A stretch of 24,563 bases of DNA from a virus (taxonomy: Duplodnaviria > Caudoviricetes): positions 1-24,563 of the IMG/VR virus record IMGVR_UViG_3300007541_006062; one strand, given 5' to 3'. Of the stretch, positions 13,366 through 20,904 are shown in pieces. Position numbers and translations under genes: made by a program. The notes beneath the pieces were generated by a model. That model did not search any database. It worked only from the letters and a program-made list of their open reading frames with translations, and was not told the origin of the DNA. How positions within the stretch are numbered: the first letter of the stretch is position 1; the number at the start of each line of letters is the position of its first letter.

Positions 13366-13941
13366 ATGAAAACAGTAGGAAATAAACTAAGTCCATTTAG
13401 AATTGTTGGCGTAAAGCCAGGAAGACTAGATGCCTCTGACGATGTTTTTGAAGTATTAAATGAAAAATCTTTTCCAGGAAAATGGAAGGTAATTGTTTTT
13501 TATCCAAAAGATTTTACTTTTGTTTGCCCAACAGAAATTGTTGCATATGACAAGCTTGTAAATGATTTTAATGATCGTGATGCAGTACTGCTTACAGGAT
13601 CAACCGACAATGAATTCTGTAAAATTGCATGGCGTAACGCACATGAAGATTTAAAAAAGACAAATTCATGGTCATTTGCAGATCAAATTCGTGAATGGAG
13701 TTATTCAGAAATTGATGATGAATCGTATACTGGTCTAGCAGAACAGCTTGGAATCCTTACAAATGATGGTGTTGCTCTTCGTGCGACATTTATTGTTGAT
13801 CCAGATAATGTTATTCAGCATGTAACAGTAAACAACCTTAATGTTGGAAGAAGCCCAGAAGAAACATTACGCATTTTAGATGCTCTCCAAACAGGAGAAC
13901 TTTGTGCGTGTAACAGAAGCCTAGGCGGAGAAACTCTATAA
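13366..13941 (+). CDS. ahpC: Peroxiredoxin AhpC (mycobacterial/streptomycete type)
   Basis: FYPKDFTFVCPTE peroxidatic motif, RATFIVDP, C-terminal ELCACN. Confidence 0.95.
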   Translation: MKTVGNKLSPFRIVGVKPGRLDASDDVFEVLNEKSFPGKWKVIVFYPKDFTFVCPTEIVAYDKLVNDFNDRDAVLLTGSTDNEFCKIAWRNAHEDLKKTNSWSFADQIREWSYSEIDDESYTGLAEQLGILTNDGVALRATFIVDPDNVIQHVTVNNLNVGRSPEETLRILDALQTGELCACNRSLGGETL

Positions 13942-14450
13942 TGTGGGTTGAACAGCTAAAAGAATCTTTGCCAGAATATGCCAAAGATATAAAATTAAAC
14001 CTTGATGCTGTCATTAATCGTAGTACGGTTGATCCAGAGCTAGCGACCCACCTAGCTTTGGCAGCCTCATTTGCTACTGGAAATGGAAAGCTTATTGGGT
14101 TTATTGCCGCTTCTTCTACAAACGAAGTCGAAAAGAATGCAGCAATGACAGCTGGCGCCCTAATGGCTCAAAATAATGTGTGGTATCCATATCTTGAAAT
14201 GGCGGACGATCCAAATCTTTCAGGTCTTCCTGCACAATTAAGAATGAATGCAATTGCTTCTCATGGAGGAACTACAAAAGCTAATTTTGAAGCATACTCA
14301 TTAGCCTCTTCAATAATTGGCAAATGTCATTTTTGTGTTAAAGCACATTATGAAACATTAAAACAAGAAGGATTTAGTGTTGAGCAATTAAGAGATATTG
14401 GAAGAATTGCCGCAACAATAAATGCATTAGCTAAGATATTAAATTCTTAG
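13941..14450 (+). CDS. ahpD: Alkylhydroperoxidase AhpD
   Basis: LPEYAKDIKLNL, MAQNNVWY, LRMN, CHFCVKAH; coupled to ahpC. Confidence 0.93.
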   Translation: MWVEQLKESLPEYAKDIKLNLDAVINRSTVDPELATHLALAASFATGNGKLIGFIAASSTNEVEKNAAMTAGALMAQNNVWYPYLEMADDPNLSGLPAQLRMNAIASHGGTTKANFEAYSLASSIIGKCHFCVKAHYETLKQEGFSVEQLRDIGRIAATINALAKILNS

Positions 14451-15375: not shown

Positions 15376-15798
15376 ATGGTAACACAATTTGCCATGGATC
15401 TTTTTAAAGATCCTTTTTTTATTGGCTTTAACAGAGAGTTAGAGCGTATTAATAATGTATATCGTGAAGCAACTAATCAATCTTATCCGCCATATGATGT
15501 ATTAAAGGTGGATGAAGATTCTTATGAGATTTCTCTCGCAGTTGCAGGATTTACTAAAGATGATTTATCAATACACATTGATAATGGATCTTTAATTGTA
15601 GAAGGATTAAAAGAGTCAGTTGTGGCTCCAAAATCTTATCTACACAAAGGTATTGCAGCAAGAAAATTTGTTCGCACATTTGCATTATCTGAATATATGG
15701 AGGTGCAGAGTGCACAATTGGCCGATGGAATTCTTAAGATTAATATTGAAAGAATCGTCCCAGAAGAAAAAAAGCCAAAAGCAATTAAAATCAAATAA
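15376..15798 (+). CDS. Small heat shock protein Hsp20 (IbpA-like)
   Basis: FIGF, SYPPYD, LAVAGF, YLHKGIAARKFVRTF, DGILKI, PEEKKPKAIKI. Confidence 0.95.
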   Translation: MVTQFAMDLFKDPFFIGFNRELERINNVYREATNQSYPPYDVLKVDEDSYEISLAVAGFTKDDLSIHIDNGSLIVEGLKESVVAPKSYLHKGIAARKFVRTFALSEYMEVQSAQLADGILKINIERIVPEEKKPKAIKIK

Positions 15799-15800
15799 GG

Positions 15801-15886
15801 TATAATGGTTATGTCCATGAAGATGGACACGGGCCGAATAGTTACGCCTTAGGATACACCTGAGCATGTGTATAAACTGCTCACCA
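15801..15886 (+). ncRNA. Candidate structured RNA (hairpin plus H-type pseudoknot) with its own -10 box
   Basis: TATAAT 15801-15806; hairpin TGTCCAT-GAAG-ATGGACA; pseudoknot ATACAC/GTGTAT crossed by TGAGCA/TGCTCA. Confidence 0.5.
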
Positions 15887-15901
15887 ACATATAGGAGAAA
15901 T

Positions 15902-16084
15902 ATGCCAAGATATGAATATGCCTGCATCGAATGTGATTTTGGCATGGAGATAACAAAATCTTTTTCAGAAGCTGATTCTGTTGAGATGTGTGAAAAATGT
16001 GGAAACGCAATGAATAAAGTTTATGGAACAGTTGGCGTTCAGTTTAAAGGTACAGGGTTTTACAAAACAGATAATTCAAAATAG
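15902..16084 (+). CDS. FmdB-family zinc-ribbon protein (start 15902)
   Basis: MPRYEYACIEC...CEKCG...FKGTGFYKTD; SD AGGAG. Confidence 0.88.
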   Translation: MPRYEYACIECDFGMEITKSFSEADSVEMCEKCGNAMNKVYGTVGVQFKGTGFYKTDNSK

Positions 16085-20067: not shown

Positions 20068-20904
20068 ATGAAAGAGTTTTCTTGGGAAGCAATGACGGAT
20101 ATCAAATCTATCTATGATATAGATTTAAACGCCGCAGACGGAACCCCAAATTTTTTACAGCAGTTTAAAGGCAAGGCTATAATGCTTGTAAACACAACAG
20201 TTGGTTGCGGAAACGCTAATCAGTTAGAAGTTTTACAGTGGTTGCAAGATGAGTTTGGTGGAGACAAATTTCAAGTAGTTGGCATACCAACTAACGATTA
20301 TTGCGGACCTGGAATTACTAAGGGCAAGTGGTCAGAGGGCATCACATGCGGAATGGACTCTCAAAAGTATGGAGAGGATGTTTACGGAACTACGTTTAAG
20401 TATTCTGAAATGATTTCTTCTAACCCTAACGCTGAAGTTATTGCTCAAGTAAGCACCCACCCAGGGAAAAATGGTGTTGGCCAAGACCTTGGGGAGCCAC
20501 ATGACCTTTATGTTGAAGCTTCTAATCATGCTGCATGGCTTTACTCATATCATAAACAAACTGAAGGCGATGACTACGAATCCGATACAGATCAATATTA
20601 TTCATGGTGGCTTAACCAAAAAGATTCTGGAATAAATATGGGTGGGAACTACGAAAAGTATTTTTTTGACAAAGACGGATACCTTGTAAGACATTTACAT
20701 TGTAATGCATTAAATTATGATGCAGAAAAAACAATTAAAGAATCACATGAGCAGGACGGTAGAAAATTTAAAAGATTCTCGCACTTTGCTAGGTCCTCAA
20801 AGATATTTGAAGAAGAACTCGCATATACAAAAAATTTAATAAAAGAATTATCTGAAAATAGAATTTCAGAATTAAACCCAGCCTTTGGGTTTAAGTGGAA
20901 ATAA
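20068..20904 (+). CDS. Divergent glutathione peroxidase-like protein (Cys type)
   Basis: FKGK..LVNTTVGCG, GIPTNDY, GNYEKYFFDKDG correspond to the three GPx motifs; SD AAGGAG. Confidence 0.75.
   Translation: MKEFSWEAMTDIKSIYDIDLNAADGTPNFLQQFKGKAIMLVNTTVGCGNANQLEVLQWLQDEFGGDKFQVVGIPTNDYCGPGITKGKWSEGITCGMDSQKYGEDVYGTTFKYSEMISSNPNAEVIAQVSTHPGKNGVGQDLGEPHDLYVEASNHAAWLYSYHKQTEGDDYESDTDQYYSWWLNQKDSGINMGGNYEKYFFDKDGYLVRHLHCNALNYDAEKTIKESHEQDGRKFKRFSHFARSSKIFEEELAYTKNLIKELSENRISELNPAFGFKWK

Follow-up and report, generated by a model that had tools for sequence, protein, structure and literature searches.

The coremin motif of RNA viruses, an Xrn1-resistant element occurring as xrRNA-C and xrRNA-WCC in beny-, cucumo- and picorna-like viruses, is described in the available portions of two accounts as a 4-bp hairpin (hp1), a UUAAAC-containing spacer and a required second hairpin (hp2), with GAG paired to CUC in the WCC variant (PMC10321173, PMC10520033). 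The words "phage" and "bacteria" are absent from the available portion of PMC10520033. For phages, the available text of PMC3088659 has suggested that intergenic ribozymes process transcripts into short mRNAs.

In this study, we analysed a window of 24,563 nucleotides, namely the whole stretch of a Caudoviricetes record from IMG/VR, in which a compact H-type pseudoknot (the knot) lies downstream of a small heat-shock protein gene. Its closest known counterparts are the coremin xrRNA and the 5′ domain of the Rfam family GP20-b (RF03003), and it was assigned to neither. Like coremin and xrRNA-WCC, the knot has a 4-bp first stem topped by C-G, a 1-nt first loop, a UUAAA-type spacer, a loop end A-D, the GAG/CUC pairing of WCC, a size of about 20–30 nt and a place in untranslated regions. 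Against the consensus given in the available parts of the coremin accounts, it has the 4-bp hp1 and the conserved spacer ending AAAC-U; its hp1 loop (C-UGAGCA-W), set beside the 4–8 nt YGAD/YGNNAD of coremin, is 8 nt long with a Y start, an A-D end and a U before the G, and its first loop base is C whereas the WCC consensus requires G at position 5. The two also differ in that stem 2 of the knot spans 5–6 bp, compared with 3 bp or non-canonical pairs in coremin, in the presence of a hinge base, and in their carriers, which are DNA phages and prokaryotic mobile elements for the knot and eukaryotic RNA viruses for coremin. Furthermore, coremin is a 5′-to-3′ nuclease block, whereas the context of the knot points to its 3′ side and its resistance is a prediction. 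At a 4-bp threshold, which excludes the 2-bp tetraloop form of hp2, a coremin-type second hairpin directly 3′ of the spacer was detected in 18 of 202 viral knots against 20 after shuffling, and none was present in the window; nor was a 2-bp tetraloop hp2 visible there. Because the second hairpin was not enriched, the knot was not filed as a member despite its resemblance to an extended coremin.

The GP20-b members above the cut-off share with the knot the layout NNNC-loop-GNNN-UAAAAC, and a two-stem knot was identified by script in the 5′ domain of 4 of 10 matches, the layout being recognisable by eye in most of the others. Two members matched the coremin loop consensus by eye, and one match (L713, 35.2 bits) formed a full Watson–Crick knot. 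The structure line of the Rfam entry contains only stem 2, drawn as a hairpin. Family knots located before phage scaffold genes scored about 18–25 bits for GP20-b (best 25.4), and the window reached no score of at least 36.2 bits, having no match at E ≤ 1. Neither the second hairpin nor the AAAAAGCGUA tail of GP20-b is present at the window knot, which is followed by a zinc-ribbon gene, not by the scaffold (GP20) gene. As a separate observation, the GP20-b matches L706–L715 (for example L708 and L712) have a 5′ domain that looks like the coremin motif and then a second hairpin, only one of the two stems being modelled in Rfam. The M23 motif (RF03006) had no match in the window and no member among 151 genomes. 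The T4/T2 gene 32 operator, in the available text of PMC3014915, resembles the knot in its two coaxial stems within a phage leader and in the A/U-rich stretch and Shine–Dalgarno sequence downstream, but it serves autoregulation of gene 32, whereas the knot flanks unrelated genes.

Fold, covariation and spread of the knot

Two perfect, interlocking 6-bp stems had been described in the first-pass annotation, and both were read directly on the plus strand: stem 1 as ATACAC (15854–15859) with GTGTAT (15868–15873), and stem 2 as TGAGCA (15861–15866) with TGCTCA (15878–15883). This perfect 6+6 knot was unique in the window when both strands were scanned, and a pattern scan found no second copy of the consensus there. 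Since shuffling the complete window 60 times produced such a knot by chance in 8 cases (compared with 9 in 20,000 shuffles of the spacer), the single copy provided moderate evidence only, and the proof came from covariation.

Among 132 distinct cores collected by pattern, the free positions of stem 1 were Watson–Crick paired at frequencies of 0.96, 0.93 and 0.69, compared with 0.39, 0.31 and 0.31 after shuffling of the partners. The fifth and sixth (outer) pairs of this stem did not covary in the same cores (0.26 and 0.30 versus 0.33 shuffled), and since they stood at background, the conserved stem 1 was taken as 4 bp, ACAC (15856–15859) with GTGT (15868–15871), the part of the element from 15856 to 15871, leaving an A-rich loop AUAAAC of 6 nt (15872–15877). 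The description of two 6-bp stems thus applied to this copy, while the conserved stem 1 was shorter. For stem 2, assayed in 119 cores collected with that stem left free in the pattern, the corresponding values were 0.77, 0.88 and 0.89 versus 0.41, 0.51 and 0.53, with the terminal U-A pair retained in 61 of the 119. The stems are joined by the single loop base C15860 and by the hinge U15867, which lies between the 5′ strand of stem 2 and the 3′ strand of stem 1. With compensatory changes in both stems, the pseudoknot was demonstrated to be conserved.

The fold was also assessed in relatives picked by their Hsp20 protein, from which 18 of 27 distinct cores, those of 29 nt, were aligned. Paired cells amounted to 89.4% and double changes occurred at 7 of 11 pairs, in a selection that confined stem 2 to purine/pyrimidine classes; this level of pairing was reached in 0 of 500 shuffles, and slid controls gave 21–42%. 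The conserved fold thus comprises stem 1 of 4 bp, the loop C, stem 2 of 5–6 bp, the hinge base and a loop of 6 nt that terminates in AAAC. Conservation exceeded that explained by pairing at the loop C, the U and the AAAC. An initial loose descriptor, matched by 464 of 2,450 shuffles, was superseded by a stricter one fixing the loop C, U, A and AAA, so that these bases are invariant by construction in the counts on 187, 202 and 316 knots.

The first-pass annotation could not assign the element to a described family, and the Rfam search agreed: the window element had no match at E ≤ 1, and the knot has no Rfam family of its own. Rfam likewise returned no match at the element in 20 hsp20-related loci, and in 60 further loci the only matches over knots were to GP20-b, all of them sub-threshold. 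The presumed local novelty did not hold, since the element recurs throughout phages and the window has one of its copies. With stem 2 and the flanks as the sole fixed positions, a pattern matched an estimated 5,300 or so IMG/VR stretches (extrapolated from 2 of 64 parts), and about 1,700 stretches matched a second pattern with stem 1 fixed and stem 2 free. Approximately 570 matching stretches were found in GTDB genomes of many phyla; in the 68 of 133 flanking ORFs that were scanned, Pfam matches often marked prophages or mobile elements, such as scaffold proteins, ArdA, ArdC and DUF7249. BLAST placed the motif in cultured phages of Roseobacter, Lentibacter, Arthrobacter, Bacillus, Lactobacillus, Staphylococcus and Clostridium. 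Three BLAST hits were inspected, of which the Roseobacter phage SIO1 carried the full knot, located 3′ of the stop codon of a reductase gene, and the gammaproteobacterial/enterobacterial phages PO103-1 and Berlingot a stem 1 of just 2 bp; no argument was therefore drawn from hosts lacking RNase J. No account of the knot motif in phages was found in the literature searched, to which the supplements of PMC5737381 and parts of PMC10690425 did not belong. The knot is widespread yet absent from Rfam as a family, and the element is real and conserved; its function we infer. Separately, a shared sequence with CAYUG and GARGG was noted directly 5′ of the knot in eight loci from Aminicenantes and other phyla (L392, L403, L417, L432, L439, L444, L449 and L455), without an Rfam match at that sequence.

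The cassette between hsp20 and the zinc-ribbon gene

Pfam and ARAGORN scans revealed that the window encodes DnaE, RecA, SSB, RuvC, WhiB and Hsp20 together with five tRNAs, and the WhiB gene and the habitat label of the best-matching RNA run point to a freshwater actinobacterium as the probable host. Phage-borne redox genes were also noted at 13366–14450 and 20068–20904, comprising an AhpC-like/CMD (AhpD-like) pair and a gene resembling glutathione peroxidase. The spacer with the knot measures 103 nt and separates hsp20 (15376–15798, plus strand; Pfam HSP20, E = 5.8e-18) from a zinc-ribbon gene of 60 aa (15902–16084, plus strand; Pfam Zn_ribbon_8, E = 1.6e-8), a match that bears out the earlier naming of the downstream gene as FmdB. 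This gene is interchangeable, other proteins being encoded 3′ of the same cassette in relatives. The spacer was correctly described as GC-richer, with 43% G+C compared with 36% for the window and 22–30% for the other tRNA-free spacers of more than 40 nt. The terminator scan called no site at this spacer and no terminator-like site 3′ of hsp20; a terminator-like hairpin with a U run was observed inside the start of hsp20, at 15396–15413.

The TATAAT, the hairpin, the two stems, the ACCA and the Shine–Dalgarno sequence were all recovered at their positions in the sequence. The TATAAT, a predicted −10 box read directly at 15801–15806 (plus strand), was part of neither cassette search pattern and was present in 50 of 51 distinct cassettes, which supports the proposal that the element has its own TATAAT; a −35 hexamer was not found at this site, and the two-hexamer promoter scan listed none here. 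The 7-bp hairpin (15812–15829, plus strand; TGTCCAT at 15812–15818, GAAG, ATGGACA at 15823–15829), at which the transcript is predicted to start, had pair probabilities of 0.72–1.0 in nested folding. Its onset lay 5 nt 3′ of the TATAAT in 45 of 50 relatives, and it measured at least 7 bp in 47 of the 50, with varying pair types. These features make a promoter with a 5′-terminal hairpin probable. TATAAT recurs on the plus strand at gene junctions at 389, 9975, 13171, 15315, 16093, 18437, 20937, 22205 and 23126 and at several gene ends. It is often preceded by GG or TGA, and in most cases no clear −35 accompanies it.

Between hairpin and knot, folding and comparison of relatives indicated a middle module (15831–15855, plus strand), a weak GGGC/GCCU hairpin with a UAGUUAC loop followed by UAGGAU, with variants having a short 3-bp or a long 4-bp stem; the UAGUUAC loop was fixed by the search patterns. 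The knot is followed by ACCA (15883–15886, plus strand), whose first A is the final base of stem 2 and whose CCA occupies 15884–15886, and by the Shine–Dalgarno sequence AGGAG (15893–15897, plus strand), read directly before the ATG at 15902. The arrangement TATAAT–hairpin–module–knot was found in 51 distinct copies, placed 3′ of two different genes and 5′ of several, and in 48 of the 51 a Shine–Dalgarno sequence and start codon followed within 45 nt of the knot. Since these copies lead into translation signals and varied genes, the cassette was regarded as a leader more than as a stand-alone sRNA, and the sRNA proposed earlier was not borne out; the local transcript most probably extends into the gene that follows.

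The RNA runs consist of contigs, from which strand, starts and ends are not readable. One contig of low depth (X1), identical over 15702–15894, spanned hsp20 and the element. A contig from a relative (X4, depth 58) stopped at 15883 without a loose end; as it derives from one study and the sequence 3′ of the knot differs between strains, this end was not counted as evidence.

In the slot behind hsp20, 38 of 49 distinct relatives carried the knot, alone or behind other modules, and the remaining 11 carried a different RNA closed by an 11-bp stem. This replacing RNA (L295, L299, L300, L309, L312, L320, L322, L324, L336, L337 and L339), 85 nt long and located about 10–100 nt 3′ of the hsp20 stop, showed compensatory change in 4 columns of its outer stem and an inner UAGUUA loop, had the words UAGUUAC and CUURG in common with the middle module of the window in reversed order, and was without an Rfam match in the five loci scanned. 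Other swappable hairpin modules occurred between TATAAT and knot, 3′ of the hsp20 stop, in six loci (L284, L290, L296, L301, L302 and L333). Five loci (L002, L003, L046, L086 and L306) carried a longer promoter-driven structured RNA with a knot variant with a 3-nt hinge at its end, for which Rfam gave no match in the two scanned, L086 and L306.

Position of the knot relative to genes and processing sites

Under a simple ORF rule, 169 of 202 viral knots had a same-strand coding sequence upstream. On the downstream side, 107 were followed by a same-strand gene, 23 by a tRNA, 41 by an opposite-strand ORF and 31 by none of these. Stop codon and loop C were 9 nt apart in 28 of 187 knots and closer in only 3, so that the distribution has a sharp lower edge, which corresponds to a spacer of 5 nt. 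This spacing matches the length of message held inside a terminating ribosome, and we take the edge as the nearest place at which a folded knot can stand.

Processing sites were found predominantly on the 3′ side. Of 316 knots, 24 had a tRNA 5′ end no more than 40 nt downstream, 23 of them at 0–14 nt, and 3 had a tRNA 3′ end upstream, counts that are not independent because related phages are included and 11 of the 24 are tRNA-Asp. Type III hammerheads called by descriptor had their cut 6–13 nt downstream in 5 of 316 knots, and none lay upstream. A targeted scan gave 10 knot–hammerhead pairs with the cut 5–21 nt downstream and the reverse order in 0 of 75 loci, although the forward and reverse patterns were unequal and several of the hammerheads are alike. 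Rfam confirmed two hammerheads in L424, one above the cut-off, and at E ≤ 0.5 did not report those of L004 and L135; its twisters in L446 and L464 were both below gathering. Matches to Twister-P1 and DUF2800 began 1–2 nt 3′ of knots. The DUF2800 RNA of L456 (1526–1686), 1 nt 3′ of a knot, contains a CUGAUCA word as in the hammerhead core, and it may, speculatively, be self-cleaving. A HEARO-like RNA in L453 (1557–1698, minus strand) was also observed to end about 30 nt 5′ of a knot. U-rich tails followed 39 of 202 knots and preceded 13.

Such cuts leave the upstream piece ending in the knot and a short tail, as expected of a 3′ cap. Structures capping 3′ ends left by processing include the REP stem-loops and the triple helix of MALAT1, which precedes mascRNA. 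Like these caps, the knot would be a structure standing at a 3′ end that a cut further downstream has created, as RNase P does before a tRNA-like RNA; its sequence and fold are unrelated to theirs, and the analogy is functional only.

Function of the knot

We consider it fairly probable that the knot, a covarying H-type motif at transcript boundaries, is a passive barrier to RNA decay, mainly a 3′ cap for the upstream RNA. Of the roles offered in the first-pass annotation, nuclease blocking is accordingly the one that the evidence favours, with the same moderate confidence. In the proposed mechanism, groove triples made by the invariant loop C and by the AAAC loop would lock the two stacked stems, RNase P, a ribozyme or a host endonuclease would cut a few bases 3′ of the knot, and 3′-to-5′ exonucleases would then stall at stem 2. 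At this locus the knot would cap both the message of the upstream gene hsp20, which would finish at the knot, and the transcript from the local TATAAT, which would have a protective hairpin at its 5′ end and extend into the zinc-ribbon gene; the possible leftover would be a stable RNA of about 75 nt. Several observations run counter to a 3′ cap: the knot lies in a 5′ leader before the Shine–Dalgarno sequence in nearly all cassettes, it stands about 10 nt 3′ of the TATAAT in L325, L330 and L335, where a 5′ role fits equally, nested folding pairs the middle module with the knot strands, and the closest validated relative, coremin, blocks a 5′-to-3′ nuclease in the available part of PMC10321173.

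The knot could instead shield the 5′ side of the downstream message by stalling RNase J, obstructing RNase E scanning or holding back ribosomes that leave the upstream stop, a possibility that we regard as considerably less probable although it is compatible with a decay barrier. It is consistent with the position of the Shine–Dalgarno sequence 3′ of the knot, with the same domain in the leaders of GP20-b members, and with the resemblance to coremin, which stalls both Xrn1 and scanning ribosomes (PMC10321173, PMC10520033, available portions). H-type knots of 8–15 coaxial pairs impede RNase E scanning, but a knot of 11 pairs is merely a modest obstacle in the available text of PMC9943677. Moreover, a cut at a tRNA or ribozyme leaves the knot with the upstream RNA, where only 0–21 nt would be shielded, and the second hairpin was not enriched, in a count at a threshold of 4 bp where coremin needs only 2 bp.

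It is improbable, to a further degree, that the knot acts as a folding insulator or is bound by a protein of the phage or host, keeping adjacent tRNAs, ribozymes and ribosome sites from misfolding. The many structured RNAs adjoining the knot and the conservation beyond pairing agree with such a role, but coremin-like tertiary contacts would probably explain this conservation as well, and no neighbouring gene was common to the knots in the 68 ORFs scanned.

A two-state switch or riboswitch, in which the middle module would control the downstream gene or the cap by folding into a separate hairpin or invading the knot, appears quite unlikely. The invading rod, in which 15848–15853 pairs with 15859–15864, had a probability of 0.84–0.93 in a nested fold, was preferred for 30 of the 48 matches that were scored, including one chance match, and was kept by wobble pairs in all variants seen. 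Nested folding, however, cannot score the knot, and all changes in the predicted rod were single-sided, with no compensatory change seen. The rod had an energy of −10.6 kcal/mol and the module hairpin −3.4, and the knot duplexes had −4.3 and −7.0, an initiation term being included in each. The loop penalty of a pseudoknot is 7–10 kcal/mol, and on these values the rod and knot states are close. Many knots lack the module, the Shine–Dalgarno sequence lies outside both folds, and the downstream genes are unrelated instead of having the consistent function typical of a riboswitch, which makes the riboswitch-like leader suggested at first pass unlikely.

It is still less likely that the knot itself cleaves as a small ribozyme, signals recoding or serves as a type III antitoxin decoy. 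Knots do occupy the intergenic slots typical of ribozymes (PMC3088659, available text), and CptI, an H-type knot, combines a 1-nt loop with an A-minor loop (PMC4627078, available text). A separate ribozyme often adjoins the knot, however, and the antitoxin reading is opposed by the single copy in the window and by the absence of any toxin family among the 44 window proteins scanned. For recoding, the stop was TAA in 71 of 95 cases, the frame was open through the knot in 39 of 95 compared with 65 of 190 for the other frames, and slippery sites numbered 10 versus 6 of 202. A frameshift or readthrough pseudoknot was not supported by these slippery-site, stop and open-frame counts.

The tymovirus tRNA-like structure is a pseudoknot followed by ACCA, with an anticodon and a T arm, at the end of the genome. 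The earlier idea of a tRNA-like mimic, taken here to mean that the pseudoknot forms an acceptor arm with an ACCA end and is charged or cut by RNase P, is barely credible: this copy has ACCA after stem 2 and a hairpin 5′ of the knot, but the ACCA is incidental, since in place of the conserved 3′ NCCA of tymovirus-type structures an ACCA follows the knot in just 13 of 132 family cores and 10 of 51 close cassettes, ARAGORN and Rfam call no tRNA at the element, the T-loop consensus and anticodon arm are absent by inspection, and the knot is not at a genome end.

Where self-cleaving ribozymes and tRNAs lie between phage genes, a cut exposes the 3′ end of the upstream piece, and a dedicated cap would explain the survival of that piece. 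Through the knot, phage DNA and GP20-b are linked with the Xrn1-resistant coremin of RNA viruses; being tiny and common, the knot could be a compact RNA stabiliser. More tentatively, phages and mobile elements of many phyla may use a coremin-related knot of 28 bases as a general message cap that, together with RNase P or ribozymes, cuts transcripts into stable pieces in a MALAT1-like manner; in the present lineage, the promoter, 5′ hairpin and knot might bracket a swappable payload, giving a small RNA protected at both ends, with the UAGUUAC module switching the knot off.
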